The notes beneath the pieces are model-generated. The model did no database searches, was not told the origin of the DNA, and saw only the letters and a list, made by a program, of their open reading frames with translations. From Longimicrobiales bacterium (lineage in GTDB: Bacteria; Gemmatimonadota; Gemmatimonadetes; Longimicrobiales; Gaopeijiaceae), in assembly GCA_963664435.2 (NCBI GenBank), contig CAXXKM010000001.1:1184001-1248000 (forward strand): 64,000 nt of DNA, given 5' to 3'. Position numbers and translations under genes: made by a program. This document shows positions 169 to 61,582 of the stretch, piece by piece. Position 1 is the stretch's first letter. Each line of letters opens with the position of its first letter.

Positions 169-2634
169 ATGCGCGCAATCGCGGCATCCGGGCTCATCTC
201 GGGACTTCTGCTGGCGAGCGGAAGCAGTTTCGTCGGCCCGGGTGCGTCCGGGCCCGATCGGGAACCGGCGACAGGCTTGGTCCGGCCCCATTCCGCCATC
301 GCCAGCCACGGCTCCGGCACCATTTCCAACGACGAGCTCACCGCCGTGGTGGTACGCTACTGCCAGGTGTGCCACAACGACTTTCTCCAGACCGGCAACC
401 TTTCCCTGATCGGCTTCGACGTCGCCGCCGCCTCGAGCGCGCCGGAGACGGCCGAGAAGATGATCCAGAAGCTGCGGGCCGAAATGATGCCGCCCCCGGG
501 GATCCCGCGTCCGGGGGGCGACACCCTCCGGATGCTGGTCGAGACCCTCGAGGCCAACATGGACCGGGCGGCCGCCGAAGCCCCCAACCCGGGCGGCCGG
601 ACCTTCCAGAGGCTGAACCGGGCCGAGTACCAGAGTTCCATCCGCGACCTTCTCGAGATGGATATCGACGCGGCCGACTTCCTGCCGCTCGACACCAAGA
701 GCGCGAACTTCGACAACATCGCCGACGTGCAGGCGCTCTCGCCGACGCTCCTGAGCGCCTATCTCAAGGCGGCCAGCGAAATCTCGCGCCTCGCGGTCGG
801 CAACCCGCTCGCGGGGAACCAGGAGACCACCTACCGCATCCCCCGGCTGGCTTCCCAGCGGGAGCGGGTGCCGGGCGCGCCCTATGGATCGCGCGGCGGC
901 ACCTCGGTGGTACACAACTTCCCTGCCGACGGGACCTACGAGTTCAGCGTATCGTTCCACTACTCGCCGGAAGGCTACCTGTTCGGCCGCAACGAACCCG
1001 GCGAACAGGTCGACATCTCGATCGACGGCGAGCAGGTCGCACTGCTGCCGATCGACCGATTCATGGGCGAGGTCGATCCCGGCGGAAAGGGCCTGATCCT
1101 CGAGACCGGCCCCATCCAGGTGCGCGCCGGTCCCCACCGTGTCTCCGCGGTCTTCATCCCCACGGAGCGCGGCCCGGTGGACGACCTCTTCTCCGCGCAC
1201 GGCCACAGCATCGCCGACACCCAGATCGGCATCGGCTACGGGCTCTCCATGCCGCCCCACATCCGTGACCTGGTGATCAAGGGACCGGCCAGGGTGACGG
1301 GCGTTTCGGACACCCCCAGCCGCCGCAGGATCTTCTCCTGCCGTCCCACCGGGGCGGACGAGGTCCGGCCGTGTGCCCGCACCATCATCGAGCGGGTCGC
1401 GACCGACGCCTACCGCAGGCCGGTGGATGACGCGGACCTGGCCGGCCTCATGGCCTTCTACGACCAGGGCGCACAGGAGTCCGGCTTCGAAGGCGGGATC
1501 CGCTACGCGCTGGAGGCGATCCTGGCGAGCCCACACTTCATCTTCCGCTTCGAGGAGTGGCCGGAGGGGGTGGAGCCGGGCGAGACCTACCGCATCAGCG
1601 ACGTCGACCTGGCCTCCCGCCTCTCCTTCTTCCTGTGGGCCTCGCCTCCGGACCAGGAGCTGGCGGCCCTGGCGCGCGCCAACCGGCTTTCCGGCCGCGT
1701 GCTGCGCGAACAAACGCTGCGCATGCTGGCCGATCCCCGCTCGAGCGCGCTCAGCAGCCGCTTCGCCGCGCAGTGGCTGCGCCTCTCGGATCTGGAGAAG
1801 CTGAACCCGGACATGGTGCTCTTCCCGGACTACGACCAGCAGCTCGCCGATGCGCTCATTCGCGAGACCGAGCTGTTCTTCGACCACCTCTTCCAGGAAG
1901 ACCGGCCCGTCACCGAGTTCATCACCGCCGACTACACCTTCATCAACGAGCGCCTGGCCAACCACTACGGGATTCCCGGGGTGGTGGGCGAGGAGTTCCG
2001 CAAGGTGCAGTACCCGACGGAACGGCGCCGCGGCGTCTTCGGGCACGGCAGCGTCCTCGCGCAGAGTTCGCTCGCCAACCGCACTTCCCCGGTTCTGCGC
2101 GGGAAGTGGGTGATGGAGGTCATCCTCGGCACGCCGCCTCCTCCTCCGCCCCCGGGCATACCCGACCTCGACGAGACCGAGGGTTCCGAGGGCACGCGCA
2201 TGCTCACTACGCGCGAGCGCATGGAGATCCACCGCGCCAACGTCGTCTGCAACGCCTGCCATCAGTTCATGGATCCAATCGGGCTGGCGCTCGACAACTT
2301 CGACGTCACGGGCCGCTGGCGCATTCGCGAGAACGGCATCGCGCTCGACACCCGGGGCCAGCTCTACGACGGCACGCCGCTCACCAGCCCCACCGACCTG
2401 CACGAAACGATGCTGCGGCTGAGAACGCCGGTGTTGCGCAACTTCACGGCGAACCTGATGGCCTACGCCCTGGGACGCCGCGTGGAATACTACGACATGC
2501 CCGCCGTGCGCCGAATCGTGCAGCGGGCCGAAGAAGACGACTATCGTCCTTCCGAGTTCGTCCTCGGCATCGTCGAGAGCGATGCCTTCCGCATGCGCAA
2601 GGCGGCGGAACTGGCTACCGAAGCACAACGCTGA
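169..2634 (+). CDS. Cassette 1 gene A: secreted di-haem c protein, DUF1587/1595/1592/1588/1585 (PSD) family
   Basis: RBS GGAGAGGA before ATG 169; signal peptide; CQVCH and MMPPP; RLNRAEY, LASRLSFFLW, TSPVLRGKWV, poly-Pro, CNACH, LMAYALGR motifs. Confidence 0.9.
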   Translation: MRAIAASGLISGLLLASGSSFVGPGASGPDREPATGLVRPHSAIASHGSGTISNDELTAVVVRYCQVCHNDFLQTGNLSLIGFDVAAASSAPETAEKMIQKLRAEMMPPPGIPRPGGDTLRMLVETLEANMDRAAAEAPNPGGRTFQRLNRAEYQSSIRDLLEMDIDAADFLPLDTKSANFDNIADVQALSPTLLSAYLKAASEISRLAVGNPLAGNQETTYRIPRLASQRERVPGAPYGSRGGTSVVHNFPADGTYEFSVSFHYSPEGYLFGRNEPGEQVDISIDGEQVALLPIDRFMGEVDPGGKGLILETGPIQVRAGPHRVSAVFIPTERGPVDDLFSAHGHSIADTQIGIGYGLSMPPHIRDLVIKGPARVTGVSDTPSRRRIFSCRPTGADEVRPCARTIIERVATDAYRRPVDDADLAGLMAFYDQGAQESGFEGGIRYALEAILASPHFIFRFEEWPEGVEPGETYRISDVDLASRLSFFLWASPPDQELAALARANRLSGRVLREQTLRMLADPRSSALSSRFAAQWLRLSDLEKLNPDMVLFPDYDQQLADALIRETELFFDHLFQEDRPVTEFITADYTFINERLANHYGIPGVVGEEFRKVQYPTERRRGVFGHGSVLAQSSLANRTSPVLRGKWVMEVILGTPPPPPPPGIPDLDETEGSEGTRMLTTRERMEIHRANVVCNACHQFMDPIGLALDNFDVTGRWRIRENGIALDTRGQLYDGTPLTSPTDLHETMLRLRTPVLRNFTANLMAYALGRRVEYYDMPAVRRIVQRAEEDDYRPSEFVLGIVESDAFRMRKAAELATEAQR

Positions 2635-2690
2635 AGGCAGACCAAGAGACAGTTAGGCAGGGTACATCCCGTCACCGACAGGAGCACGAC

Positions 2691-4112
2691 ATGAAGTTCA
2701 TCACCGGAACCCACATTCCTCGACGGACATTCCTGCGAGGGTCGGGGATCGCGCTCGCGCTGCCCCTTCTCGACAGCATGATCCCGGCGGGCAGGCTCTG
2801 GGGCGACGCGGCCAGCGAAGTGCAGAAGCCGCGCCTGATCGCCATCGAGAACTCGCACGGAGCCGCGGGGAGCAACGAGTGGGGGGCAACCCAGAACCTT
2901 TGGGCTCCGGCGAAGCTGGGTCGCGACTTCGATCTGAGCCCGAGCGCGCTCAAGCCGCTCGAGGCCTTCCAGGATCGCCTGACGATCATCAGCAACACCG
3001 ATGTTCGCCAAGCGGAGGCCTTCGCGCCGAAGGAGATCGGGGCCGACCACTTCCGGTCCAGCGCCACCTTCCTGACCCAGGCGCATCCCCGGCGCACCGA
3101 GGGCTCCGACGTCTACGTCGGCACCTCGATGGATCAGCTCTTCGCCCAGCGCTTCGGCCAGGAGACCGCGATTCCCTCCATGCAGCTCTGCATTGAGAAC
3201 GTGGACCAGTCGGGCGGCTGCTCGTACGGGTACGCCTGCGCGTACACGGACTCCATCAGTTGGGCCTCTCCGACCGATCCGCTGCCCATGACCCGGGATC
3301 CCCGCGTGGCCTTCGACCAGCTCTTCGGAGCCGGGGGAACGCCCGAGGAGCGGGCGCGGCGGCGGCAAACCCAGAAGAGCATCCTGGACTGGGTGACCGA
3401 AGAAGTCGCGCGCCTGCGCACCGCGCTCCCGCCCGAGGACCGAATCCGGATGGAGCACTATCTGGAGGACGTGCGCGAGCTGGAGCGGCGCATCGAGCGG
3501 ACCGAGGCGCGCAACACGAGCGGATTCGAGCGCGAGCTGCCCGAGGCCCCGGTCGGCGTCCCGGACTCCTACACCGAGCATGTGCAGATGATGTTCGACC
3601 TGCAGGCGCTCGCCTTCCAGACCGACATGACCCGCGTCTTCTCGCTCAAGATGAGCCGCGACGTATCGTCCCGCGTCTTCCCCGAGAGCGGCTGCGAAGG
3701 CGGCTTCCACCCGCAGTCGCACGCTTCCGGCAACGAGGGCGTGCTGGGCTTCTACCAGATCAACCAGTACCACGTGGGTCTGCTGCCGTACCTGCTCGAG
3801 AAGCTCAACAACACGGCGGAAGTGGACGGCACGTTGCTCGACAACACGATGGTCGTCTACGGATCCCCCATGGGCGACGGCAACCTTCACAACCACCGGC
3901 GCGTGCCCTTCATCGTAGTGGGCGGACAGTCCATGGGGCTCGAGGGCGGGGTCCACGTCAAGGCCCCGGACGGTACGCCGCTGGCCAATGCCATGCTCAC
4001 CCTCCTCCACAAGCTGGGGCGGGACGACCTCGACAGCTTCGGCGACAGCACCGGCGAGATGCTGATGTCGCTCCCGACCTCCTACGCCGACGAAGTCAGT
4101 TCGAGTTCGTAG
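2691..4112 (+). CDS. Cassette 1 gene B: Tat-exported DUF1552 (HXXSHH) family protein
   Basis: RBS AGGAG before ATG 2691; RRTFLRG twin-arginine signal; CSYGYACAY; HPQSHA variant of HxxSHH; TLLDNTMVVYGSPMGDGNLHNH; FGDSTG. Confidence 0.9.
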   Translation: MKFITGTHIPRRTFLRGSGIALALPLLDSMIPAGRLWGDAASEVQKPRLIAIENSHGAAGSNEWGATQNLWAPAKLGRDFDLSPSALKPLEAFQDRLTIISNTDVRQAEAFAPKEIGADHFRSSATFLTQAHPRRTEGSDVYVGTSMDQLFAQRFGQETAIPSMQLCIENVDQSGGCSYGYACAYTDSISWASPTDPLPMTRDPRVAFDQLFGAGGTPEERARRRQTQKSILDWVTEEVARLRTALPPEDRIRMEHYLEDVRELERRIERTEARNTSGFERELPEAPVGVPDSYTEHVQMMFDLQALAFQTDMTRVFSLKMSRDVSSRVFPESGCEGGFHPQSHASGNEGVLGFYQINQYHVGLLPYLLEKLNNTAEVDGTLLDNTMVVYGSPMGDGNLHNHRRVPFIVVGGQSMGLEGGVHVKAPDGTPLANAMLTLLHKLGRDDLDSFGDSTGEMLMSLPTSYADEVSSSS

Positions 4113-18589: not shown

Positions 18590-21129
18590 ATGAGAGTATT
18601 CGCATCGATCGCGGTTGTGGCGGGCATCGGGATGGCGGCTGCCGGCACGGACGATTCCGGGCCCGTAACCTCGACGTTCCATCCCGGCGACGCGGATGGG
18701 ATCGCGCGAATCCTGGCGGACAACGCGTCAGGACCTGCCGGCGAGGCCCTCTCTCCAGCTCGGGCGGGGAACGCGTCCGGCGCCGCTCACCTGCCCGCAG
18801 CCACGCTCACCGAAGTCGTTCAGCGCTACTGCCAGGTCTGCCACAACGACGCGCTCCTCACCGGCAACATGTCCCTCGCCGGCTTCGACATCGACAACTT
18901 GGCCGCGCGCGCCGAGACCGTGGAGCGGATGATCCTCAAGCTGCGCGCGGGGATGATGCCCCCACCGGGGATGCCCCGCCCGGCCGGCGACACGCTCGAG
19001 CTGCTGGTCACCACGCTCGAGGATCGCATGGACGCCGCTTTCGCGGCGAACCCCAATCCCGGCGCCCGCTCCTTCCAGCGCCTGAACCGCGCCGAGTACG
19101 AACGCTCGGTCAAGGACCTGCTCGATCTCGACATCGACGCCGGCGAATACCTCCCGCTCGACACCAAGAGCGCGAACTTCGACAACATCGCCGACGCCCA
19201 GATGCTCTCGCCCACCCTGCTCGAAGCCTACCTGAACGGGGCCAGCGACATCGCACGGCTGGCGCTGGGCGACGCAGCCGCCACCGCGAGCGAGACCCAG
19301 TACCAGGTCTCCCGCTGGGCTTCGCAGACCGAGCGGGTCGAGGGCGCGCCCTACGGAACGCGCGGCGGCCTCAGCGTCGAACACAACTTCCCGGCCGACG
19401 GTGAATACGTCTTCCGCGTCTCCTTCCACCACGAAACCACCGGCACCCTGGTCGGCAACGGGCGCAACGCGCTCCACACCGACGAATCCCCGGAACAGCT
19501 CGAGATCTCCATCGACGGCGAGCGGGTGGCGGTCCTCGAACTCGACCGCTGGATGCACGTCTCCGACCCGGACGGCGTCAACATGCGCACCGAACCGGTG
19601 TTCGTGCGCTCCGGCAACCACCGGGTGACCGCCGCCTTCCTCAAGCACGCGGAAGGCCCGGTTCAGGACCTCATCTCCCCGCACGACTGGTCGCTCGCGA
19701 GCACCGCCATCGCCGGCACCTACGGGCTGCTGGCGCTGCCGCACCTGCGCGATCTGGTCATCGGCGGCCCCTTCAACCCCACCGGGGTGTCGGAGACCGC
19801 CAGCCGGCGGGCCATCTTCACCTGCCGGCCCACCGACCCCTCCGAAGAGACCGCCTGCGCGACCGAGATCATCTCCCGGCTGGGGCAGAAGGCGTTCCGG
19901 CGGCCGCTGGTCGACGAGGACATGACGGCGCTGATGGCGTTCTTCCGCACCGGCGCCGACGAGGGCGGTTTCGAGGCGGGTATCGGCACCGCGCTGGAAG
20001 CCATCCTCGCGAGCCCGCACTTCGTCTTCCGGTTCGAGGAGCCGCCTGCGAGCACGCGTGCCGACGGAGGCTACCGGATCCGCGACATCGACCTCGCCGC
20101 GCGCCTGTCCTTCTTCCTCTGGGGCACCTCCCCGGACGAGGAACTGATGGAGCTGGCGGTGGCAGACCGGCTGTCGGATCCGGCGGTGCTCGACGCCCAG
20201 GTGACGCGCATGCTGGCCGACCCGCGCGCCGAGGCGCTGGGCACGCGCTTCGCGGCGCAGTGGCTGCGTCTCCAGGATCTCGAAAAGATCAATCCCGACG
20301 TCCGCCTGCAGCCCGATTTCTACCAGCAGCTGCGCGAGTCGATGCACCGCGAGACCGAGCTCTTCTTCTACAATCTGGTTCGGGAGGACCGCAGCGTCTT
20401 CGACCTGTACAACGCCGACTACACCTTCGTGGACGAGCGGCTGGCGCGGCACTACGGCATCCCGGATGTCGCCGGCGACCACTTCCGCCAGGTTGAGTAC
20501 CCGGACGAGAACCGGCGTGGGCTTTTCGGCCACGGCAGCATTCTGACCCTCACCTCGCACGCCGGGCGCACCTCGCCGGTGCTGCGGGGCAAGTGGGTCA
20601 TGGAGGTGCTGCTCGGCACTCCGCCCCCCCCTCCGCCCCCGGGCGTACCCGATCTCGAGGAGACCGAGGAATCGGAGGGTGGCCGCATGCTCACCACCCG
20701 CGAGCGCATGGCAATGCACGCCGCCAACCCGGTGTGCAACGCCTGTCACCAGTTCATGGACCCGATCGGCCTCGCTCTCGACAACTTCGGGGTCTCCGGC
20801 AAGTGGCGCATTCGCGAAAACGGCATGCCGCTCGACACCCGGGGGACGTTCTACGACACGACGCCGGTCTCGAGTCCGACCGAGCTGCAGCAGGCACTGC
20901 TCAAGCGTCCGGAACCCCTGATCCGCACGTTCACCGCCAACCTGATGGCCTACGCTCTGGGACGGCGGGTCGAGTACTACGATCAGCCCGCATCCGGGCC
21001 ATCGTGCGCGAGGCAGAGCAACAGGACTACCGCATCTCGGCGTTCATCCGGGGCGTCATCGAAAGCGATGCCTTCCAGATGAGCGGACCCGAGCCCGCGG
21101 TCGCGGAAAGTCAGGGAGAGTCCCGATGA
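18590..21129 (+). CDS. Cassette 2 gene A: di-haem PSD/DUF1592 protein with a 1-nt frameshift near 20991 (as read, the frame ends at 21082)
   Basis: Same motifs as copy 1; after YYDQP the conserved tail IRAIVREAEQQDYRISAFIRGVIESDAF continues in another frame to the stop at 21129. Confidence 0.85.
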
Positions 21130-21233: not shown

Positions 21234-22655
21234 ATGCACTTCATTACCGGAAAGCACATCCCCCGGCGCACCTTCCTGCGGGGCGTGGGCGCCACCGTCG
21301 CGCTGCCCATGCTCGACGCCATGATCCCCGCGGGCCGCACCTGGTCGAGGGCGGCCCGCAACGACGATCCCACCCGGCTCATCGCCATCGAGATCGTCCA
21401 CGGGTCGGCCGGCGCCAACGAGTGGGGAGCCACCCAGAACCTCTGGTCTCCCGCCACCACGGGGAGCGACTTCGAGCTGGGCCCCAGTTCGCTCGCCCCC
21501 CTGGAGCGCTACCGCGACTACCTCACCATCTTCAGCAACACCGATGTCGCGAACGCCGAAGCCTACCAGCCCAAGGAGATCGGTGGTGACCACTTCCGGT
21601 CGAGCGCCGTCTTCCTCACGCAGGCCCACCCCAAGCAGACCGAAGCCTCGGATGTCTATGTCGGCACCTCGCTCGACCAGCTGCACGCGCAGCGCTTCGG
21701 GCAGGACACGCCGATCCCGTCCATGCAGCTCTGCATCGAAAACGTGGATCAGGCCGGCGGATGCGCCTACGGCTACGCATGCGTTTACACCGACACCATC
21801 AGCTGGGCCTCCCCGACCGAGCCGCTGCCGATGATCCGCGATCCGCGCATCGCCTTCGACCAGCTCTTCGGCGCGGGCGGGACCGCGGAGGAGCGAGCCG
21901 CCCGGCGCCGCACCAGCCGCAGCATCCTCGACTGGATCGCCCGCGACGTGGCCCGTCTGAAGCAGGAGCTCCGGCCCTCGGATCGGCAGCGCATCGACCA
22001 GTACCTGGAGAACGTGCGCGAGATCGAGCGCCGGATCGAGCGCATCGAGGCGCACAACAGCAGCGGCGAGGAGAGGGAGCTCCCCGAAGCCCCTGCCGGG
22101 GTCCCGGACTCCTTCACCGAGCACGTCGAAACCATGTTCGACCTGCAGGCGCTCGCCTTCGCCTCCGACATGACGCGCGTCTTCTCCTTCAAGCTGGGGC
22201 GGGACGCGTCTTCGCGGGTGTATCCCGAGAGCGGCACCGACAAGCCCTTCCACCCGGCGTCGCACCACGGCGGGAGCCCGGAGGGCGTTGTCGACTTCGC
22301 CACCATCAACAAGTACCACGTGAGCATGCTGCCCTACCTCATGGACCGCCTGCGCGAGAACATGGAAGGCGACACGCACCTGCTCGACAAGACCATGATC
22401 GTCTACGGCTCGCCCATGGCCGACGGGAACCTGCACAACCACCGCAGGTGCCCGCTGATCACGCTGGGCGGGGCCAACGGCAGGCTCCAGGGCAACCTGC
22501 ATCTGAAGGCTCCCGACGCCACGCCCATGGCCAACGTCATGCTGAGCCTTCTGCACGCGCTGGGACACGACGACATGACCAGTTTCGGCGACAGCACGAG
22601 CGCATTCCCCCTGGGGATGTCCGGCACAGCCGCCGCCCAAAGCAGCTCCCGATAG
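21234..22655 (+). CDS. Cassette 2 gene B: Tat-exported DUF1552 protein
   Basis: GGAG RBS; RRTFLRG; CAYGYACVY; HPASHH; GSPMADGNLHNHRRCP. Confidence 0.9.
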   Translation: MHFITGKHIPRRTFLRGVGATVALPMLDAMIPAGRTWSRAARNDDPTRLIAIEIVHGSAGANEWGATQNLWSPATTGSDFELGPSSLAPLERYRDYLTIFSNTDVANAEAYQPKEIGGDHFRSSAVFLTQAHPKQTEASDVYVGTSLDQLHAQRFGQDTPIPSMQLCIENVDQAGGCAYGYACVYTDTISWASPTEPLPMIRDPRIAFDQLFGAGGTAEERAARRRTSRSILDWIARDVARLKQELRPSDRQRIDQYLENVREIERRIERIEAHNSSGEERELPEAPAGVPDSFTEHVETMFDLQALAFASDMTRVFSFKLGRDASSRVYPESGTDKPFHPASHHGGSPEGVVDFATINKYHVSMLPYLMDRLRENMEGDTHLLDKTMIVYGSPMADGNLHNHRRCPLITLGGANGRLQGNLHLKAPDATPMANVMLSLLHALGHDDMTSFGDSTSAFPLGMSGTAAAQSSSR

Positions 22656-49958: not shown

Positions 49959-52385
49959 ATGAATGCAATCTCTGGCGCCACGGCCGTCCTGGGCGTCGTC
50001 CTGCTGGTCGGGGCGAGCGGAAGCGGCTTCTTTCCGGACGCCCCTCCCGTCCCGGCCCCTCCCGCGGGCCACGCGCGCGCCGCCCCCGACCTCCCCCCCG
50101 CCACGCTCACCGATGTCGTGGTCCAGTACTGCCAGGTGTGCCACAACGACGCCCTCCTGACCGGCAACATGACCCTGTCGGGCTTCCAGGTGGAGGCGGC
50201 CGCGGAGAACGCCGAGACCGCCGAGCGCATGATCCGCAAGCTGCGTGCCGGCATGATGCCCCCACCCGGCATGCCCCGCCCCGCCGGCGACACCCTGCTG
50301 GCCCTGGTCCAGACCCTCGAGAGCACCATTGACGATGCCGCGCGCCGCAACCCCAACCCCGGAGGGCGCACCTTCCAGCGCCTCAACCGGGCGGAGTACG
50401 AGCAGTCGGTGAAGGATCTGCTCGGCCTCGACATCGCCGCCGGCGAATACCTGCCCCTGGACACCAAGAGCGCCAACTTCGACAACATCGCCGACGTCCA
50501 GATGCTCTCTCCGACGCTGCTCGAGGCGTACCTCAACGCAGCCAGCGAGATCAGCCGGCTGGCGATCGGCGACCGCGAAGCCAGCCCCCGCGAGGTTGCC
50601 TACAAGGTCGAGAAGCGCGCTTCCCAGCTCGTTCATGTGGAGGGTACCCCCTACGGCTCGCGTGGTGGCATCGCCATCGACCACACCTTCCCGGCCGACG
50701 GGGAATACATCTTCTGGATGCAGTTCCACGGCGTGGGCGGCAGGGCAACCGGAGAGAAGATCGAGGTCTCCTTCGACGGTGAGCGGGTGGCCCTCCTGGA
50801 CGTGAACCTGCGCGGCGGGACGGAGAACGAGCAGCAGGGCCGCGAGATGGTCACCGACCCCATATTCGTGCGCGCCGGTCCCCGCAGCGTGTCCGCGGCG
50901 TTCGTCAGAACATTCGAGGGGCCGGTGGAGGAAGTACGGGCGCCGCTCGGACGCGCCGTCAACAGCGGCTGGCCCGACCTGGCTCTCACGACGGTGCCCC
51001 ACCTGCGCGAGTTCGCGGTACGCGGACCCTTCAGCGTAACCGGCGTATCGGAGACGCCGAGCCGCCAGAAGATCTTCAGCTGCCGGCCGACCGCTCCGGA
51101 AGAAGCGCCCGGATGCGCGCGCAGCATCTTTTTGCGCCTGGCCTCGGAGGCCTATCGGCGTCCCGCCACCGAAAGCGACGTCGCCGACCTGATGGCCTTC
51201 TACGAGATCGGCGCCGAGGAGGGAGGATTCGAGCGCGGCGTCCGCTTCGCTCTTCAGGCCCTTCTGGCGAGCCCGCATTTCGTCTTCCGCTTCGAGGAAC
51301 CGCCCTCGGGCACGCGAGCCGGCGAGGAATACGAACTCGACGGCGCCGCCGTCGCCTCGCGGCTGTCGTTCTTCCTCTGGGGATCTCCTCCGGATGAGGA
51401 ACTGATGGAGGCGGCCCGCCGTGGGAGGCTGGACGACGAAGACGAGCTGGAGCGGCAGGTCCGGCGAATGCTGGCGGATCCGCGCTCCGACGCCCTCTCG
51501 ACCCGCTTCGCGTCGCAGTGGCTGCGGCTGCAGGACCTGGAGAAGGTGTCGCCCGACATCTACACCTTCCCCTACTTCGACATGACGCTGTCGGACGCGA
51601 TGCGGCGGGAGACCGAGCTCTTCTTCCAGAATCTCGTGCAGGAAGATCGCAGCCTGCTCGAGATCCTTACCGCGGACTACACCTTCGTCAACGAGCGGCT
51701 TGCCGCCCATTACGGGATGCCGGATGTCGCGGGCAGCAACTTCCGCCGGGTCGAGTACCCGGACGACCGGCGCAGCGGGCTCCTCGGACAGGGCAGCATC
51801 CTCATGCTTACGTCGATGGCCAACCGCACCTCGCCCGTCCTGCGCGGCAAGTGGGTCATGGAGGTCCTGCTCGACTCGCCTCCGCCCCCGCCTCCACCCG
51901 ATGTTCCGGCACTGGAGGCCACCGAGGGGATCGAGGAGGGCAAGTTCCTGACCACGCGCGAGCGCATGGAGAAGCACCGGGCCAGCCCGGTTTGCCAGGC
52001 CTGCCACCAGTTCATGGATCCCATCGGGCTGGCGCTCGACAACTTCGACGTGACCGGAGAGTGGCGCGTGCGCGAGTACGGGATGCCACTCGACACGCGC
52101 GGCACCTTCTACGACGGAACCACCGTGGCGAGCCCGGGAGACCTGCGCGACGTGCTCCTCAAGCGCCCCATCCCGATCGTGCGCGCCTTCACCAAGAACC
52201 TGATGGCGTACGCGCTCGGGCGCCGCGTGATGCATTACGACCAGCCGACGATCCGCGAAATCACGCGCGAGGCGGAGGCCAGCGACTACCGGATGTCGTC
52301 GTTCATTCTGGGCATTGTCCAGAGCGACGCGTTCTCCATGAAGCGGACGGATGCGCTCCTGACCGAGGAGACATCCTCCAACTGA
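49959..52385 (+). CDS. Cassette 4 gene A: di-haem PSD/DUF1592 protein
   Basis: RBS GGAGGT; signal peptide; CQVCH; CQACH; all PSD motifs present. Confidence 0.9.
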   Translation: MNAISGATAVLGVVLLVGASGSGFFPDAPPVPAPPAGHARAAPDLPPATLTDVVVQYCQVCHNDALLTGNMTLSGFQVEAAAENAETAERMIRKLRAGMMPPPGMPRPAGDTLLALVQTLESTIDDAARRNPNPGGRTFQRLNRAEYEQSVKDLLGLDIAAGEYLPLDTKSANFDNIADVQMLSPTLLEAYLNAASEISRLAIGDREASPREVAYKVEKRASQLVHVEGTPYGSRGGIAIDHTFPADGEYIFWMQFHGVGGRATGEKIEVSFDGERVALLDVNLRGGTENEQQGREMVTDPIFVRAGPRSVSAAFVRTFEGPVEEVRAPLGRAVNSGWPDLALTTVPHLREFAVRGPFSVTGVSETPSRQKIFSCRPTAPEEAPGCARSIFLRLASEAYRRPATESDVADLMAFYEIGAEEGGFERGVRFALQALLASPHFVFRFEEPPSGTRAGEEYELDGAAVASRLSFFLWGSPPDEELMEAARRGRLDDEDELERQVRRMLADPRSDALSTRFASQWLRLQDLEKVSPDIYTFPYFDMTLSDAMRRETELFFQNLVQEDRSLLEILTADYTFVNERLAAHYGMPDVAGSNFRRVEYPDDRRSGLLGQGSILMLTSMANRTSPVLRGKWVMEVLLDSPPPPPPPDVPALEATEGIEEGKFLTTRERMEKHRASPVCQACHQFMDPIGLALDNFDVTGEWRVREYGMPLDTRGTFYDGTTVASPGDLRDVLLKRPIPIVRAFTKNLMAYALGRRVMHYDQPTIREITREAEASDYRMSSFILGIVQSDAFSMKRTDALLTEETSSN

Positions 52386-52419: not shown

Positions 52420-53847
52420 ATGAATTTCCTCACCGGCAGACACATCCATCGGCGGACGTTCCTTCGCGGAATGGGCGGATCGCTCGCCCTCCCGCTCTTG
52501 GACGCCATGTTGCCCGCGGGCGCGGGATGGGCCCGGGCCTCGGCCAACCTGGACAAGACCCGCTTCATCGCCGTCGAGATCGTGCACGGCGCCTCGGGAT
52601 GCACGGAGTGGGGCGCGACCCAGAACCTGTGGTCCCCCGCGAAGACGGGGCGCGATTTCGATCTGAGCCCCACGGCCATGAAGTCGCTCGCGCCCTTCCA
52701 GGACCACCTCACCATCGTCAGCAACACGGACGTGCGGATGGCGGACGCCTACACCTCGCCCGAGATCGGCGGGGATCACTTCCGCTCGAGCGCGACCTTC
52801 CTGACGCAGGCGCACGCGAAGCAGACCGAGGGATCGGATGTCTTCGTGGGGACGTCGATGGATCAGCTGTACGCGCAGCGCTTCGGCCAGGAGACGCCGA
52901 TTCCGTCGATGCAGCTGTGCATCGAGAACGTGGACCAGGCGGGCGGATGCGCCTACGGCTACGCCTGCGTGTATACCGACACCCTCAGCTGGGCCTCCCC
53001 CAGCGAGCCGCTGCCGATGATCCGCGACCCGCGGGTCGCCTTCGACATGCTCTTCGGAGCCGGAGGAACGCCCGAAGCGCGCGCCGAGCGCCGTCGGGCC
53101 AACCGCAGCATCCTGGACTGGATCGCGGGCGAGGTGGCCGAGCTGAAGATGGTGCTGGGCGGCGAGGACCAGGTCCGGCTGGAGCAGTACCTGGACAACG
53201 TGCGGGAGCTCGAACGCCGCATTCAGATGATCGAGGAGCAGAACGCGAGCGGCGAGGAGCGGGCCCTTCCGGAAGCCCCGGCAGGCGTCCCCGACTCCTT
53301 CACCGAACATCTGCAGCTCATGTTCGACCTGCAGGTGCTGGCCTTCCAGACCGACATGACCCGGGTCTTCACGCTCAAGCTCTCGCGCGACGCAACCAAC
53401 CGGGTGTATCCGGAGAGCGGGCTGGACCTGCCCTTCCACCCGACGTCGCACCACGGGAACAACCGTGAGGAGATCCTCAAGTTCCAGCAGTTCAACGAGT
53501 TCTTCACCGGACAGATGCTCTATCTGCTGGAGAAGATGGACGAGTCGATGGACGGGGACGCGAGCCTGCTCGACCGCAGCATGGTGCTGTACGGGTCACC
53601 TATGGGCGACCCCAACGTCCACAACCACCGGCGGGTGCCCATGTTCCTCGCCGGCAAGGCCAACGGCCAGCTGGAGGGCAACCTGCACCTGCACGCCCCG
53701 GACGACACGCCCATGGCCAACGTGATGCTCACCATGCTGCACAAGCTGGGGCTCGACGACATGGAGGACTTCGGCGACAGCACCGGCGAATTCGCGCTTA
53801 CGCTGCCCGCGGCGGCAACCGCCGACGCCAGCAGCTCGAGCCGATAG
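52420..53847 (+). CDS. Cassette 4 gene B: Tat-exported DUF1552 protein
   Basis: RRTFLRG; CAYGYACVY; HPTSHH; GSPMGDPNVHNH. Confidence 0.9.
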   Translation: MNFLTGRHIHRRTFLRGMGGSLALPLLDAMLPAGAGWARASANLDKTRFIAVEIVHGASGCTEWGATQNLWSPAKTGRDFDLSPTAMKSLAPFQDHLTIVSNTDVRMADAYTSPEIGGDHFRSSATFLTQAHAKQTEGSDVFVGTSMDQLYAQRFGQETPIPSMQLCIENVDQAGGCAYGYACVYTDTLSWASPSEPLPMIRDPRVAFDMLFGAGGTPEARAERRRANRSILDWIAGEVAELKMVLGGEDQVRLEQYLDNVRELERRIQMIEEQNASGEERALPEAPAGVPDSFTEHLQLMFDLQVLAFQTDMTRVFTLKLSRDATNRVYPESGLDLPFHPTSHHGNNREEILKFQQFNEFFTGQMLYLLEKMDESMDGDASLLDRSMVLYGSPMGDPNVHNHRRVPMFLAGKANGQLEGNLHLHAPDDTPMANVMLTMLHKLGLDDMEDFGDSTGEFALTLPAAATADASSSSR

Positions 53848-55680: not shown

Positions 55681-55711
55681 AGACGCAGCGGCATCCAACG
55701 GGCGGAGCACG

Positions 55712-58201
55712 GTGAAGAACGTCACGACTGTCGGACTGCTGGGCCTGATATCGGTTGCACTGGGAGCCTTTGGGGATCTCGATGCCGGCAGGGAGGTCGG
55801 GGTGTCCCCGGGCTGGGGAATGGCGGAGGAAGCCGGGCGCGCGGCGGGCACGGACATCGTCCACACCTCCATCGCGCCCGAGACGCTCACCGGCGTGGTG
55901 CAGCGTTACTGCCAGGTGTGCCACAACGACGCACTCCTGACCGGCAACCTTTCGCTTGCCGGGTTCGACGTGGAGCAGGCGCCGTCGCGCCCCGAGACCG
56001 CGGAGAAGATGATCCTCAAACTGCGTGCCGGGATGATGCCGCCCCCCGGGATGCCCCGGCCCGCGGGCGACACCCTGGTGGCGCTGGTGGAGGAACTGGA
56101 GGCGAGGATGGACGCCGCCGCGCGCGCGGCCCCCAACCCCGGCGGGCGCACCTTCCAGCGGCTCAACCAGGCCGAGTACGCAAGGTCGGTCGAGGACCTT
56201 CTGGACCTGCGCATCGACGCCGGCGACTACCTGCCGCCCGACACCAAGAGCGCGAACTTCGACAACATCTCCGAGGCGCAGCTGCTCTCGCCCACGCTCC
56301 TCGACGCCTACATGAACGCGGCCAACCAGATCAGCCGCCTGGCCATCGGCAACCCCGGCGCCCAGCCCGCCGAGCGGACGTACACGGTTTCCGGCTACGT
56401 CTCCCAGCGGGAGCGGGTCGAGGGGGCGCCCTACGGCACGCGCGGCGGCGTGAGCGTGGTGCACCACTTCCCCGCGGACGGCACCTACCAGTTCCGCATC
56501 GTCTTCGAGCACACCACCACGGGCGAGGGCTTCTTCGGCCAGATCGCCCGCTTCGAGCAGCTCGAGGTCTCGATCAACGGCGAGCGCGTGGCGCTGCTGG
56601 ACGTGGACCAGTGGATGCACATTTCCGATCCGGAGGGCATCTCCATGCGCACGGATCCGGTCTTCGTGCGCGCCGGGCCCCAGCGGGTGACCGCGGCCTT
56701 CGTCAAGCGTACCGAAGGGCCGGTGGAAGACCTGATGTCGCCCCACGAGTGGTCGCTCGCGGACCGGCACACCGGTATCAGCGGCTACGGCCTGACGCTG
56801 CTTCCGCACCTTCGGGATCTGGTGATCGGCGGGCCCTACGAGGCTGCCGGCATCTCGGAGACCCCGAGCCGCCAGCGCATCTTCACCTGCCGTCCTGAAT
56901 CGGCGGAAGAGAGCGAGAGCTGCGCGCGCGGCATCCTCGCCCGGCTGGCAGGCAAGGCGTACCGCAGGCCGCTGCTCGAGCGCGACATCGCGCCGCTCAT
57001 GGCCTTCTACCGCACCGGCGAGGAGGAGGGTGGCTTCGAGGCGGGCATCGGGACCGCGCTGCAGGCGATCCTGGCAAGCCCGCACTTCGTGTTCCGCATG
57101 GAGGAGGCGCCGGCCGGCATCCAACCCGGAGAGACGTTCCGAATCGGGGATGTGGACCTGGCTTCGCGGCTGTCCTTCTTCCTGTGGGGAACGCCTCCGG
57201 ACGGTGAGTTGATGGCGCTGGCACAGGAAGGCGCCCTTACCGGGGACGACGTCCTGGAAACGCAGGTGCGGCGCATGCTGGCCGATCCGCGCGCGGCTTC
57301 GCTGGGACCCAGGTTCGCGGCCCAGTGGTTGCGCCTGCAGGACCTGGAGCTGGTTCATCCGGACCAGTTCTGGTTCCCGGACTACGACCAGCAGCTCGCC
57401 GACGCCATGCTGCGCGAAACGGAGCTGTTCTTCAACCATCTGGTGGAGGAGGACCGGAGCGTCCTCGATCTGTACGACGCCGACTACACCTTCGTCAACG
57501 AACGTCTTGCGCGTCACTATGGCATTCCGGGGGTGCTGGGCAACCAGTTCCGGGAGGTGACCTATCCGGGTCTCGAGCGGCGGGGCGTACTGGGCCACGG
57601 CAGCATCCTCACCTTGACCTCGGTGGCGAACCGGACATCGCCGGTGCTGCGCGGCAAGTGGGTGATGGAGGTGCTGCTGGGAACGCCTCCGCCCCCTCCG
57701 CCTCCGGGGATTCCGGACCTGGAAGAGACCGAGGACTCGGAGGGCGGACGCATGCTCACCACGCGCGAGCGCATGGAGAAGCACCGGGCCAATCCGGTAT
57801 GCAACGCGTGCCACCAGTTCATGGACCCGATCGGGCTGGCGCTCGACAACTACGACGTGACCGGCAAGTGGCGCATTCGCGAGAACGGCATGCCGCTCGA
57901 CACGAGGGGCACCTTCTACGACGGCAGCACGGTCGCGAGCCCGGACGACCTGCGGGAAGCACTCCTGCGGCGTCCGGAGCCGCTCATCCGCACGTTCACC
58001 GCGAACCTGATGACGTACGCGCTGGGCCGCAGGACGGAGTACTACGATCAGCCCGCCATCCGCGCCATCGTGGCGCAGGCGGCGGAAGACGACTACAGGA
58101 TGTCGTCCTTCATCACCGGCGTGGTGAAGAGCGACGCCTTCAGAGCCAAGAGGGTACCCGAGGCGCTGGCGGAGAGCGCCCCGCAGCCGCCGGACCGGTA
58201 G
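55712..58201 (+). CDS. Cassette 5 gene A: di-haem PSD/DUF1592 protein
   Basis: GGAG plus GTG, 31 nt after cassette 4; CQVCH; CNACH. Confidence 0.9.
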   Translation: MKNVTTVGLLGLISVALGAFGDLDAGREVGVSPGWGMAEEAGRAAGTDIVHTSIAPETLTGVVQRYCQVCHNDALLTGNLSLAGFDVEQAPSRPETAEKMILKLRAGMMPPPGMPRPAGDTLVALVEELEARMDAAARAAPNPGGRTFQRLNQAEYARSVEDLLDLRIDAGDYLPPDTKSANFDNISEAQLLSPTLLDAYMNAANQISRLAIGNPGAQPAERTYTVSGYVSQRERVEGAPYGTRGGVSVVHHFPADGTYQFRIVFEHTTTGEGFFGQIARFEQLEVSINGERVALLDVDQWMHISDPEGISMRTDPVFVRAGPQRVTAAFVKRTEGPVEDLMSPHEWSLADRHTGISGYGLTLLPHLRDLVIGGPYEAAGISETPSRQRIFTCRPESAEESESCARGILARLAGKAYRRPLLERDIAPLMAFYRTGEEEGGFEAGIGTALQAILASPHFVFRMEEAPAGIQPGETFRIGDVDLASRLSFFLWGTPPDGELMALAQEGALTGDDVLETQVRRMLADPRAASLGPRFAAQWLRLQDLELVHPDQFWFPDYDQQLADAMLRETELFFNHLVEEDRSVLDLYDADYTFVNERLARHYGIPGVLGNQFREVTYPGLERRGVLGHGSILTLTSVANRTSPVLRGKWVMEVLLGTPPPPPPPGIPDLEETEDSEGGRMLTTRERMEKHRANPVCNACHQFMDPIGLALDNYDVTGKWRIRENGMPLDTRGTFYDGSTVASPDDLREALLRRPEPLIRTFTANLMTYALGRRTEYYDQPAIRAIVAQAAEDDYRMSSFITGVVKSDAFRAKRVPEALAESAPQPPDR

Positions 58202-58280: not shown

Positions 58281-59714
58281 ATGCACTTCATCACCGGGAC
58301 ACACATCCCCCGCCGTACCTTCCTGCGCGGCGCCGGCGCGACCGTCGCCCTGCCCTTCCTGGATGCCATGATCCCCGCGGGGGGCGTCTGGTCACGGCGC
58401 GCGGCGGCCGAGCCCGCCACCCGCCTGGTGGCCATCGAGATGGTGCACGGAGCCGCGGGCTGCAACGAGTGGGGCGCCACCCAGTACCTGTGGTCTCCCG
58501 AGGCGACCGGCCGCAACTTCGACCTCTCCTCCAGTTCGCTTCTTCCACTCGAGCCCTACCGCGACCGTCTCACCATCATCAGCAATACCGACGTGCGGAT
58601 GGCCGAGGCGAGAATGCCCCACGAGATCGGCGGCGACCACTTCCGCTCGAGCGCCGTCTTCCTCACACAGGCCCATCCCAGGCAGACGCGGGGCTCGGAC
58701 GTGTTCGCCGGCACCTCCATGGACCAGGTGCACGCGCAGCGCTTCGGGCAGGATACGCCGATCCCTTCGATGCAGCTCTGCATCGAGAACGTGGACCAGT
58801 CGGGAGGCTGCGCGTACGGCTACTCGTGCGTCTATACCGACACCATCAGCTGGGCCTCGTCGACCGAGCCGCTCCCCATGATCCGCGACCCGCGGGTGGC
58901 GTTCGAGATGCTCTTCGGCGCCGGAGGCACGCCGGAGGAGCGCGCCGCGCGCAGGCGCACGGACGGGAGCATCCTCGACTGGATCGCCGGCGAGGTCGCG
59001 TATCTCAGACGAGCGCTGGCACAGGACGACCAGCAGCGCCTCGACCGCTACCTGGAGAACGTCCGCGAGCTGGAGCGGAGAATCGAGGGAATCGAGAACC
59101 GCAACACCAGCGGGGAGGCGCGCGAGCTGCCGGAAGCGCCGGCCGGAGTCCCGGACTCCTTCACCGAGCACATGCAGCTCATGTTCGACATCCAGGTTCT
59201 GGCCTTCGCGTCGGACGTCACGCGCGTATTCTCGTTCAAGACGGGAAGGGACGCGTCGTCGCGGGTCTATACCGAGAGCGGCATCGACAAGGCCTTCCAC
59301 CCGGCCTCGCATCACGGAGGCAACGAGGAGGCGATTCTGGACTTCGCCCGCATCAACACCTTCCAGGCGGGGCAGCTCCCGTATCTCCTCAGGAAGCTGG
59401 ATGAGACGATGGAGGGCGACGCCAGCCTGCTCGACAAGACGATGATCGTATACGGCTCGCCGATGGCGGACGGGAACCTGCACAACCATCGCCGCTGTCC
59501 GCTCATCGTGCTGGGCGGCGCGAACGGGCGCCATGAAGGCGGGCTGCACCTGAAGGCTCCCGACGGCACCCCCATGGCCAACGTGATGTTGAGCATGTTG
59601 CACGCCCTGGGGCACGACGACAGGGACAGCTTCGGCGACAGCACGGGCGAGTTCCGGTTGAGCCCGCCGGCGGTCGCCGTCGAGGCTTCGAGCCCCTCCG
59701 GCGGAGGCCGGTAA
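58281..59714 (+). CDS. Cassette 5 gene B: Tat-exported DUF1552 protein
   Basis: RRTFLRG; CAYGYSCVY; HPASHH; GSPMADGNLHNHRRCP. Confidence 0.9.
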   Translation: MHFITGTHIPRRTFLRGAGATVALPFLDAMIPAGGVWSRRAAAEPATRLVAIEMVHGAAGCNEWGATQYLWSPEATGRNFDLSSSSLLPLEPYRDRLTIISNTDVRMAEARMPHEIGGDHFRSSAVFLTQAHPRQTRGSDVFAGTSMDQVHAQRFGQDTPIPSMQLCIENVDQSGGCAYGYSCVYTDTISWASSTEPLPMIRDPRVAFEMLFGAGGTPEERAARRRTDGSILDWIAGEVAYLRRALAQDDQQRLDRYLENVRELERRIEGIENRNTSGEARELPEAPAGVPDSFTEHMQLMFDIQVLAFASDVTRVFSFKTGRDASSRVYTESGIDKAFHPASHHGGNEEAILDFARINTFQAGQLPYLLRKLDETMEGDASLLDKTMIVYGSPMADGNLHNHRRCPLIVLGGANGRHEGGLHLKAPDGTPMANVMLSMLHALGHDDRDSFGDSTGEFRLSPPAVAVEASSPSGGGR

Positions 59715-61582
59715 TGCGCGCACCGCGGATGGCGACGCCGCGGAGGCGGGAATGCGCACTGGGAACGGGGTTTGCCGGACAGGCGCTGCCGCCCATCGTT
59801 CCGGCGGTGCCCCGGCGGAGGCGGGGGTTCCGGTTGAGCGCGGGAGCTGTCGCGCTTCTGCTCTGGGCCGCGCCGCCTGCGGACTCGCCGGTGGCGGACG
59901 CGGCGATGCGGGGAGACGCGGAGGCGGTCGTTGCCCTGATCGGCCAGGGCGCGGACGTGAACGTCCCCCAGGGCGACGGCATGACCGCGCTGCACTGGGC
60001 CGCCGAACGGGCGGACGCCGCACTTGTCCGGACGCTGCTGGACGCGGGGGCTGACGTGACCGCCGTCACGCGCATCGGCGACTACTCTCCCCTGCACCTC
60101 GCGGGGAAGGCGGGGAGCGGCGACGCCGTGGAGGCGCTGCTGGAGGCGGGGAGTGACCCGCATGCGGTGACCGCGACCGGCGCGGTGACGGCCATGCATT
60201 TCGCCGCCGGAGCCGGGAGCGCCGACGCCATCGCTTCCCTGGCCCGCCACGGCGCGGCAGTCGACGCCCGCGAAGCGGACCGGGGACAGACGCCGCTCAT
60301 GTTCGCCGCGGCCAACGACCGGATGGACGCGTTGCAGGCCCTGCTGGCGCTGGGCGCCGACCTGACCCTCCGCACCCGGGTGGTGGACATCGTGGACCTC
60401 GCCGCCGTCGACCGCGAGGCGGGAGAGGCGCGGGACGCCGTACTGCAAGAGTTCCGGGCGCAGGCGGAGGACCCGCGCTCCTGGCGGCCCACGCCGGAGC
60501 AGGTGCAGGCCGCAGTGCGGGCGGGCCACGAGGTGCAGGCTTCGCGCACCCGGGCCCTGGCCGACCAGGAAGAGCCGGAGGCAGCCCCGGACGCCTTCCC
60601 GGGATACACGGGCCTGGTGGGCCGCCAGGGCGGGATGACCGCGCTCCTGCACGCGGTGCGCGAAGGACACGCCGAAACCGCGCTGGCACTCCTCGACGCC
60701 GGCGCGGACATCAACGGCGTGAGCGGCGGCGACCATACCGGTCCGCTGCTCATGGCGACCATCAACGGTCACTTCGACCTGGCCATGACCCTGCTCGGCC
60801 GCGGGGCCGATCCGCGCACCGCCAGCGACGCCGGCGCGACGCCCCTCTACGCCACCATCAACGCCTACTGGGTGCCGAAGTCGCGCTATCCCCAGCAGCA
60901 GGCCTACCAGCAGCAGCATACCACCTACCTGGAGCTGATGGAGGCCCTCCTCGAAGCCGGCGCCGACCCCAATGCACGCCTGACCCGCCACCTGTGGTAC
61001 ATGTCCTATACCTTCGACCTTCTGCGGGTGGACACCCAGGGCGCCACGCCCTTCTGGCGGGCCGCCTACGGGACCGACGTGGAGGCGATGAAGCTGCTTG
61101 TGGCGAACGGCGCCGATCCGTCCATTCCGACCATGAAGCCGCCCGAGCGACGCAGGGGCGGCGCGGACGCGGAGGATCCTTCCGGGTTACCGCCGGTGCC
61201 GGTCGGAGGACCCGGAGTGTACCCGATTCACGCGGCCTCGGGTGTTGGCTACGGAGAGGGCTACGCGGGCAACTCGCACCGCCACGCCCCCAACGGCTGG
61301 CTGCCCTCCGTCCGGTACCTGGTGGAGGAACTCGGAGTCGACGTGAACGCCCGCGACCACAACGGCTACAACGCCCTGCATCACGCCGCCGCGAGAGGGG
61401 ACGTGGAGCTGATCCGCTACCTGGCCGAGCGGGGAGCCGACGTGACGGCGGTCAGTCGCCGGGGACAGACCACCGCGGACATGGCGAACGGACCGGTGCA
61501 GCGCATCCAGCCCTTCCCCGAGGCGCTGGCCCTGCTGGAAAGCCTGGGTGCGCACAACAACGACAACTGCCTGTCGTGTTGA
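59714..61582 (+). CDS. Cassette 5 gene C: ankyrin-repeat protein (start uncertain)
   Basis: TAATG overlap with gene B; PPADSPVADAAMRGD; ankyrin repeats; ends NNDNCLSC*. Confidence 0.88.
   Translation: MRAPRMATPRRRECALGTGFAGQALPPIVPAVPRRRRGFRLSAGAVALLLWAAPPADSPVADAAMRGDAEAVVALIGQGADVNVPQGDGMTALHWAAERADAALVRTLLDAGADVTAVTRIGDYSPLHLAGKAGSGDAVEALLEAGSDPHAVTATGAVTAMHFAAGAGSADAIASLARHGAAVDAREADRGQTPLMFAAANDRMDALQALLALGADLTLRTRVVDIVDLAAVDREAGEARDAVLQEFRAQAEDPRSWRPTPEQVQAAVRAGHEVQASRTRALADQEEPEAAPDAFPGYTGLVGRQGGMTALLHAVREGHAETALALLDAGADINGVSGGDHTGPLLMATINGHFDLAMTLLGRGADPRTASDAGATPLYATINAYWVPKSRYPQQQAYQQQHTTYLELMEALLEAGADPNARLTRHLWYMSYTFDLLRVDTQGATPFWRAAYGTDVEAMKLLVANGADPSIPTMKPPERRRGGADAEDPSGLPPVPVGGPGVYPIHAASGVGYGEGYAGNSHRHAPNGWLPSVRYLVEELGVDVNARDHNGYNALHHAAARGDVELIRYLAERGADVTAVSRRGQTTADMANGPVQRIQPFPEALALLESLGAHNNDNCLSC

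Follow-up and report, generated by a model that had tools for sequence, protein, structure and literature searches.

Several neighbouring genes recur together in the 64,000-nucleotide window (the whole stretch of DNA analysed here), which raises the question of whether their products, a di-haem PSD-type protein (A), a DUF1552 protein (B) and an ankyrin protein (C), work together in the periplasm, and as what.

Five A-B-C gene sets and their age

A sequence-only reading had placed five A-B-C copies on the plus strand, and this was borne out, with all 15 genes located in that order (Table 1) and the DUF1552 gene directly adjoining A in each copy. The reading frame of A2 is broken in the window; one extra base was present there in four of four public runs, which possibly include the window's own DNA source, so the frameshift probably reflects an error in the assembly. 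A2 would then end at 21129, and its reading as a pseudogene was rejected.

Table 1. Genes of the five A-B-C sets in the window
Gene	Position	Strand	Description
A1	169..2634	+	Di-haem PSD3/PSD5/PSD4/PSCyt3/PSD2 protein, DUF1592 type
B1	2691..4112	+	DUF1552; twin-arginine N-terminus; HPQSHA variant
C1	4198..5985	+	Ankyrin protein with signal peptide; terminal CxxC
A2	18590..21129	+	Di-haem PSD protein; one-base frameshift near 20986, likely assembly error
B2	21234..22655	+	DUF1552
C2	22669..24438	+	Ankyrin-CxxC
A3	34351..36792	+	Di-haem PSD protein
B3	36867..38297	+	DUF1552
C3	38314..40107	+	Ankyrin-CxxC
A4	49959..52385	+	Di-haem PSD protein
B4	52420..53847	+	DUF1552
C4	53866..55680	+	Ankyrin-CxxC; start codon uncertain
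A5	55712..58201	+	Di-haem PSD protein; modelled with N-terminal cytochrome c domain, PSD3, CBM-like jelly-roll, PSD5/PSD4/PSCyt3/PSD2
B5	58281..59714	+	DUF1552; modelled AP/sulfatase fold with H120, H340, H344, H401
C5	59714..61582	+	Ankyrin-CxxC; start codon uncertain

No sigma-70 promoter was found in 49500-62000, terminators there were not in excess, and no tRNA was found. RNA contigs from related strains (~89-94% identical; three runs from two studies) covered all bins and bridged A4-B4, B4-C4, C4-A5 and A5-B5, with DNA possibly present and with strand and a single transcript not resolvable from them.

The five sets are only part of the complement of the whole genome, which comprises 12 A, 11 B and 12 C genes (11 to 12 sets), and 9 to 13 B matches were obtained in 17 of 18 congeners. 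Judged by their divergence, the five window copies are old paralogues, with identities of 55-66% for A, 63-75% for B and 50-61% for C; a recent amplification was rejected, because the paralogues are only 50-75% identical and the copy spacing is the same in congeners. Elsewhere in the genome an apparent A-C operon lacks B; it was rejected as evidence of an A-C link, since comparison with congeners indicates a 5.5-kb deletion there. B matched 14,120 clusters at 50% identity, one acidobacterial genome has 53 B matches, and the trio is present in a cultured Novosphingobium strain.

The DUF1552 protein: predicted fold and putative four-histidine site

All five B match the HXXSHH/DUF1552 family (E 1e-82 to 1e-87) and carry the RRTFLRG, CxYxYxC and HNH motifs. 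The motifs previously described for A, B and C were recovered, except that HxxSHH is complete in only four of the five B; the HPQSHA of B1 retains both invariant His. The Cys pair of B is missing from the planctomycete branch. The two Arg of the twin-arginine motif are present in 84 and 88 of 91 B, TatC is encoded in the genome, and residues 1-42 of the B model are of low confidence.

With the B model (pLDDT 86.4), all 50 matches listed by VIA belonged to the alkaline-phosphatase (AP) superfamily (best Z 16.3, rmsd 4.5, 277 residues aligned), and Foldseek was concordant. B is predicted from this model to have the alkaline-phosphatase/sulfatase superfamily fold, at identities of 7-13% and Z of 13-16 to AP-superfamily structures; sequence searches of solved structures returned nothing for B alone or for the B profile, and the Atlas returned DUF1552 clusters only.

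Four His are near-invariant, both in diverse B (H120 in 88, H340 in 87, H344 in 89 and H401 in 85 of 91) and in planctomycete-type B (80, 78, 71 and 80 of 80, respectively). In a motif register drawn by eye against NPP-type and sulfatase proteins (L183, L208), H120 falls at the Thr/Cys nucleophile and HxxxH at DxxxH, the Zn2 Asp and Asp-His are apparently lost, position 56 is Asn or His, and a late strand ends G-S-P-M; profile-profile alignment of B to NPP/sulfatase by hhalign backs the late strand only and, at 1.8% probability, is too weak to fix the register. By sequence spacing only, H340-x3-H344 plus H401 fits the Zn1 pattern of D-x3-H plus a later His, with an Asp-to-His change. The sulfatase (S1) motif C/S-x-P/A-x-R is absent, His occupying that register in 88 of 91 B, and neither the NPP/AP Thr/Ser nucleophile nor the Zn2 ligands were found in B in the by-eye register. 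The predicted fold and the four His lend support to the proposal that B is a metalloenzyme, in that it is likely a metalloprotein. We know of no oxidoreductase in the AP superfamily.

The di-haem subunit and its predicted binding to B

PSD3, PSD5, PSD4, PSCyt3 and PSD2 were found above Pfam cut-offs in all five A, as were two CxxCH and MMPPP. With two CxxCH, a signal peptide (signal peptides were assigned by eye) and a maturation system in the genome, where CcmF is encoded, A is a predicted c-type di-haem cytochrome. Among 107 A, haem 2 is preceded six residues earlier by His in 106, and MPP is located after haem 1 in 99. Haem 2 is kept in all nine distant A examined. Six distant A have one haem each, and a separate cytochrome gene adjoins two of these six (cytochrome c' plus b561 in one case, a tri-haem cytochrome c in the other).

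The A central domain resembles CBM6/35/36 at Z 8-9, near the tool's background range, and the two haem domains matched the cytochrome c peroxidase YhjA weakly (Z 7.2, 85 residues), within background Z. The jelly-roll filled the VIA list for A, so the PSD/PSCyt3 core was barely covered; Foldseek gave no A match at E<=0.001, the A profile found nothing in a sequence search of solved structures, and A did not match the bCCP/MauG Pfam family. The two haem motifs and the CBM-like jelly-roll support the suggestion that A is an electron-transfer and possibly a recognition subunit.

The suggested A-B complex is likewise supported by prediction: the A core with B scored 0.74 and the best of three controls 0.00, the complex mark being reached by 116 of 157 solved pairs and 2 of 215 mismatched pairs. 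The A-B runs shared at least 76% of contacts, with a partner pLDDT of at least 82. In the predicted docking, a helical insert of B (residues 199-267) sits on the PSD3 and PSD5 domains of A through the most conserved non-His motifs of B (S230, L232, D250, Y257). Neither the haem-2 domain of A nor the His residues of B appear in the confident interface, so electron transfer between A and B is putative only. A lies directly upstream of B in 75 of 80 loci and in 47 of 51 loci; their paralogues are paired strictly 1:1, and their trees are congruent.

Neighbouring genes and a proposed periplasmic oxidoreductase

Flanking genes are mostly heterogeneous, with four cytochrome b561 and six TonB-receptor-type proteins, and no conserved signalling or transport gene, among the 91 scanned. 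Cytochrome b561 directly follows C in four loci, and SusC and SusD lie inside the operon, in the order A-SusC-SusD-B-C, in all three congeners examined. Such cytochrome b561/c and SusC/SusD neighbours suggest a periplasmic oxidoreductase acting on imported organics, a reading about which belief and doubt are roughly balanced. An even chance is given to the overall view that A and B bind each other, likely as an exported haem-metal oxidoreductase, with C as a likely branch-specific assembly or scaffolding partner.

In such an enzyme, B would be exported by Tat and loaded with one metal (probably Cu or Fe, possibly Zn) at the four-His site, with H120 at the nucleophile position and H340, H344 and H401 at the Zn1 position, while A would be exported by Sec and receive two c haems from the Ccm system. 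Oxidation of a substrate at B would release electrons that are taken up first by haem 2 (H-x5-CxxCH, perhaps with bis-His ligation) and next by haem 1 (CxxCH...MPP, perhaps with His/Met ligation), before they reach soluble cytochromes or cytochrome b561. The substrates may be organic molecules entering via SusC/SusD-type importers, different paralogues serving different substrates.

The best-surviving alternative, although unlikely, is that B has remained a hydrolase, or a group transferase, in which a Zn-His3 site is combined with H120 acting as the nucleophile through a covalent phospho- or sulfo-histidine, A being a redox-sensitive activator or scaffold. The predicted fold does belong to a hydrolase superfamily, H120 is in the nucleophile register, Zn1-type ligands are kept, and the confident A-B interface lies away from the His site; the Zn2 ligands, however, appear lost by eye, B is nearly always paired with an upstream haem protein, haem 2 persists in every distant A examined, and cytochrome b561 or c adjoins some loci. 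Less probable again is that A is a MauG-like maturase oxidising the B active site to a protein-derived cofactor, with C chaperoning the transient complex. The strict paralogue pairing with congruent trees, the predicted direct binding and the weak YhjA match would favour this, but the latter does not rise above background Z, only one haem is present in six distant A, and neither the CBM-like domain nor one copy per substrate gene is obviously needed by a maturase. Such a step would loosely parallel formylglycine formation in sulfatases. A non-catalytic unit, namely a scaffold or sensor in the envelope that binds metal or a ligand (e.g. in Cu or haem handling), seems slightly more doubtful still: up to 53 paralogues per genome, the His-rich site and the lack of a consistent metabolic neighbour would suit it, but the invariant residues coincide with positions that form the active site in an enzyme fold, and a conserved signalling or transport gene is absent among the 91 neighbours.

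An ankyrin companion in one branch of the family

Each of the five C (~600 aa) was assigned to ankyrin families, has two blocks of repeats along with long conserved inserts, and terminates in CxxC; matching ankyrin families only, C is not a thioredoxin-like CxxC redox protein. Chance is of no concern, since the C profile matches just four other ankyrins in 4.5 Mb. The idea that the ankyrin is a real third component stood insofar as it is a conserved companion gene with broadly congruent trees, flanking 77 of 80 loci of the ankyrin-bearing branch in four phyla, but it proved branch-specific, being beside none of 80 planctomycete-type loci in a DUF1552 locus sample without Myxococcota or Verrucomicrobiota. 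Among the 80 ankyrin-branch loci it lies downstream of B in 66 and only upstream of A in 11, on either strand, and in one genome (G325) it adjoins A-B in 38 of 51 paralogues and is absent in 13. Over 107 triplets the C tree follows the A tree (rho 0.89) and the B tree (0.86), as it also does among 38 paralogues from a single genome (0.85 and 0.86), and the types of C and B co-vary in 100 of the 107; A-C and B-C distances among the eight intact triplets of this genome are uncorrelated (rho 0.24 and 0.18).

The terminal CxxC is limited to one sub-branch (18 of 80 loci, 22 of 107 triplets) and was rejected as a universal C feature. Because of this restriction, and because Cx11C replaces it in two C paralogues of the genome, an essential thiol or metal role for it is disfavoured. 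The Cys pair would most simply form a capping disulfide.

We found no paper joining DUF1552 with an ankyrin. In the accessible text of the sources, KatB activity is described as depending on AnkB (PMC12754779), and at the Chromatium vinosum flavocytochrome c locus an ankyrin homologue is encoded alongside multihaem cytochromes and a flavoprotein (Dolata 1993, cited in PMC5573963), so that an ankyrin gene is linked to a haem enzyme in both, as here; the partners of C are unrelated to catalase or flavoprotein, and the likeness to these loci is analogy, not system homology. C probably has a part in assembly or scaffolding that is specific to its branch: it would help A and B assemble or hold them in place, as AnkB is reported to be needed for the catalase KatB. 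That C has only been inherited alongside an A-B pair working as proposed, unconnected to it physically or functionally, would fit its absence from planctomycete-type loci and from 13 G325 paralogues and the uncorrelated A-C distances in this genome, but is the least probable alternative, given that C has stayed next to A-B across four phyla and through rearrangement, that its tree tracks theirs and that C and B types co-vary.

Relation to known systems and significance

The A-B pair is already published, and the added ankyrin marks one large branch of the family. A PSCyt3/PSD ('Group III') cytochrome gene adjoining a DUF1552 (HXXSHH, PF07586) gene, of unknown function, was reported in Verrucomicrobiota and Planctomycetota, with the same Pfam domains, A-B adjacency, multiple copies and, for some A, additional domains of CBM type (He et al. 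2017, PMC5615132, as far as its accessible text goes, which gives no fold, complex or ankyrin for the pair). Compared with that pair, the system here has an exported ankyrin third gene, a Cys pair in B and a fixed jelly-roll in A, and its phylum labels are Gemmatimonadota, Acidobacteriota, Pseudomonadota and Actinomycetota. The DUF1501 + PSCyt1/PSCyt2/PSD1 module, for which electron transfer was proposed (Kamneva et al. 2012, PMC3542564), is built along similar lines, pairing a functionally uncharacterised twin-arginine protein with a Sec-type cytochrome that has binding domains, but comprises different Pfam families, and 'ankyrin' and 'DUF1552' are absent from the main text of that paper.

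With the AP superfamily (sulfatases, NPP/ENPP, PafA, LtaS, EptA), B shares the predicted core fold and Zn1-type spacing, but differs in the His at the nucleophile position, the Asp-to-His change at Zn1, the apparently absent Zn2 ligands and the helical insert predicted to bind the cytochrome. Tentatively, and somewhat short of an even chance, DUF1552 may be an AP-fold protein turned redox enzyme, with a four-His Cu/Fe centre replacing the hydrolase site, a dedicated cytochrome of unsolved fold and its own ankyrin assembler. Periplasmic oxidoreductases would thereby gain a new class, with which uncultured bacteria abundant in soil and sea would oxidise the organic matter they import.

Among envelope modules of environmental bacteria that still lack an explanation, the PSCyt3 + DUF1552 pair is one of the larger, and the named residues, the predicted interface and the three-gene expression unit make its function directly testable. 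Redox activity in B, if real, would add to the AP superfamily a chemistry that, to our knowledge, was not previously known for it.

Five units and the copy number of the family

All five A-B-C units claimed in the sequence-only reading were found on the plus strand with gaps of about 0-105 bases between genes, and the Pfam domains were consistent across copies, i.e. PSD3, PSD5, PSD4, PSCyt3 and PSD2 in 5/5 di-haem cytochromes (A), DUF1552 in 5/5 twin-arginine proteins (B) and ankyrin repeats in 5/5 exported C proteins. The motifs named there were present as well, except that B1 reads HPQSHA. A2 is frameshifted in the window sequence and was treated as an intact gene, because one more base was present at 20986 in 4/4 aligned runs (which may include the source DNA). 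The five copies are 50-75% identical to one another. B was found in 85/301 genomes of the phylum, which the labels of close relatives indicate to be Gemmatimonadota (order Longimicrobiales). The whole genome (G000) holds 12 A, 11 B and 12 C, with only 4 other hits of the C profile; B is present in 18/18 congeners (9-13 matches each, except 3 in one 67%-complete genome), has 53 matches in one Vicinamibacterales genome (G325) and matched 14,120 clusters at 50% identity; therefore, five copies are an ordinary number for the DUF1552 family. Protein P0001 matches C5 with full identity across the region searched; one source labels it Gammaproteobacteria, probably from a mislabelled bin, and the other labels are Gemmatimonadota.

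Predicted structures of A, B and their complex

The best reading, to which we give about half of our confidence, is that A-B would be an exported haem-metal oxidoreductase with C as accessory. The B model (from 100 sequences; pLDDT 86.4, residues 1-42 under 50, in keeping with a signal peptide) had 48 Foldseek matches at E<=0.001 and VIA matches with Z up to 16.3 (rmsd 4.5, 277 aligned), and the matches listed are alkaline phosphatase (AP) superfamily proteins. Among 91 diverse B (B5, 86 full-length representatives of 150 returned and 4 plasmid proteins), H120 (88/91), H340 (87/91), H344 (89/91) and H401 (85/91) were conserved, with H345 in 79/91 and the Cys pair in 72/91; planctomycete-type B keep the four His and lack the Cys pair. 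In both the NPP-type protein L183 and the sulfatase L208 the nucleophile lies nine residues ahead of TG, and H120, at the beginning of helix 119-126, stands in the same register; H340-x3-H344 comes just ahead of the long helix, like the D-x3-H of L183, and the strand ending SDHG in L183 ends GSPM in B. This mapping, made by eye with established AP active-site knowledge and supported by hhalign for the last strand only (1.8%), implies a candidate His4 site without Zn2 ligands. The rival that B is a His-nucleophile hydrolase seems unlikely.

In the A model (pLDDT 90.7), a cytochrome c domain at the N-terminus is followed by PSD3, a beta-sandwich (model residues about 163-326) and a helical core made up of PSD5/PSD4/PSCyt3/PSD2. 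The sandwich is similar to CBM36/35/6 at a level close to background (best Z 8.9, rmsd 2.7, 107 residues aligned). In 106/107 A and 8/9 distant A there is a His six positions ahead of haem 2, and MPP follows haem 1 in 99/107; this His may serve as axial ligand for haem 2 and the MPP Met for haem 1. That A is a MauG-like maturase is improbable.

The pairing of A with B was borne out in prediction: the cognate complex (A5 core, model residues 330-762 and 88-162, plus haem and B5 43-465) scored 0.74 (runs 0.73, 0.77, 0.74), with 0.00 as the highest score among 3 controls, passing a mark that is reached by 116/157 solved and 2/215 mismatched pairs and is a rough guide with custom alignments and ligand. 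Contact agreement between runs was at least 76% and partner pLDDT at least 82; sequence search of solved structures found no solved relative of A or B. The confident predicted interface sets the helical insert 199-267 of B on PSD3 and PSD5 of A, and leaves out both the haem-2 domain and the His site of B. D233, D250, Y257 and R262 of the insert occur in 80/80 planctomycete-type B, and A-docking would explain insert motifs conserved in both branches. That A-B-C is a non-catalytic module is a shade more doubtful than the maturase.

The ankyrin gene is a branch-specific companion of A-B

The ankyrin protein had been proposed as a real third component, and the same profile was run on two locus sets. 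The first comprised the best 80 of 590 GTDB loci and is limited to the Cys-motif branch because the Cys motif of B was part of the query; the control comprised the best 80 of 583 metagenome loci with Planctomyces-type B, one tight clade. The GTDB loci (titles: Acidobacteriota, Gemmatimonadota, Pseudomonadota and Actinomycetota) had A immediately upstream of B in 75/80 and an adjacent ankyrin gene in 77/80 (following B in 66, solely ahead of A in 11); of the three lacking it, two are on short or cut contigs. The ankyrin count was 0/80 for the Planctomyces-type loci (at least 1 kb downstream in 54, of which 34 also had at least 4.5 kb upstream). So the neighbour is conserved, but in one branch. 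In G325 it stood beside 38 of the 51 B copies examined, on either side and either strand; of the 5 plasmid loci inspected, from 15 records, the Novosphingobium locus alone had it. The distant ankyrin-less A examined were also without the central jelly-roll typical of the ankyrin branch. At one distant single-haem locus, a Sel1-repeat gene adjoins B on the opposite strand (L166:6062-7282), where other loci have the ankyrin; at two more, a Lipoprotein_15 'secreted repeat' protein, perhaps a third partner in another branch, lies directly 3' of B (L165:3289-4611, L167:6226-7557).

The trees from 107 complete triplets, incomplete or frameshifted ones being left out, were broadly congruent (57-60 of 104 splits in common; Mantel rho 0.92 for A-B, 0.89 for A-C, 0.86 for B-C; 0.84-0.86 for 38 G325 paralogues), but among the 8 intact triplets of G000 only A-B correlated (rho 0.70; A-C 0.24, B-C 0.18). 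Such congruence speaks for inheritance as a unit, not for binding. The terminal CxxC of C held in the window copies and 120/120 close homologues but only 18/80 GTDB loci; it tracks one B subtype (both 18, neither 82, discordant 7 of 107 triplets), two G000 paralogues carry Cx11C instead, and a capping disulfide would be its simplest reading. That C is a bystander is the least probable alternative.

Neighbouring genes

The neighbour scan covered 91/112 flanking proteins of the GTDB loci and 6/106 of the second set; among the 91, 6 were TonB-receptor-type. A metallo-beta-lactamase-fold gene lay ahead of A in 10 loci, mostly proteobacterial, and cytochrome b561 after C in 4 (L042, L044, L061, L068), making a five-gene version of the unit possible; the other neighbours were mixed. 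With single-haem A (n=6), one locus had cytochrome c' and b561 after B and one a tri-haem cytochrome ahead of A. TatC and CcmF are encoded in the genome.

Genes neighbouring the units
Feature	Location	Strand	Remark
TonB-dependent receptor genes	window 8267-12429, 25312-30090, 42813-46105		between triads; two with SusD partners
AhpC/TSA protein	window 41615-42289
Molybdopterin oxidoreductase	window 46181-47287		presumably MsrP-like
Two adjacent similar-looking exported proteins	window 47370-49174	minus	first: no Pfam match
Glucose/sorbosone dehydrogenase-family gene	window 61679-63118
Metallo-beta-lactamase-fold gene	L042, L044, L046, L048, L049, L053, L068, L078, L096, L109		5' of A

The order A-SusC-SusD-B-C was seen at one locus in 3/3 congeners fetched, and SusC-SusD-B-C at another; within the genus, SusC/SusD-type importer genes thus lie inside or directly before the operon (L179:1749-12047, L182:4663-12300). 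For the oxidoreductase reading, these neighbours and the CBM-like domain suggest imported organics as substrates. At the first of these loci, G000:C1:284657-289473 (L176) lacks about 5.5 kb compared with L179-L181, whether by deletion or by assembly artefact; most of SusC, all SusD and all B are missing, and the N-terminal part of SusC runs on in frame into the ankyrin. A Planctomyces plasmid (L112:4181-11102) carries GntR, a split A, B and then a DUF1080 gene, which we take to be of a 3-keto-glycoside hydrolase family, a hint of oxidative sugar breakdown.

Relation to published gene pairs

PSCyt3-DUF1552 adjacency, with no function assigned, is reported in He 2017 (PMC5615132), in whose searchable supplements 'ankyrin' is absent. 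The DUF1501 module is a parallel system (Kamneva 2012, PMC3542564) and AnkB, an exported ankyrin, offers an analogy for C (PMC12754779); PMC2754498 has a single table row on a DUF1552 gene. Outside subscription journals and bioRxiv supplements, no paper was found combining DUF1552 and ankyrin, or joining at least three of AP superfamily, His nucleophile, DUF1501 and cytochrome c. The A-B-C unit is real, conserved and branch-specific, and is a variant of an already published, uncharacterised gene pair; its enzymology is testable and possibly new.
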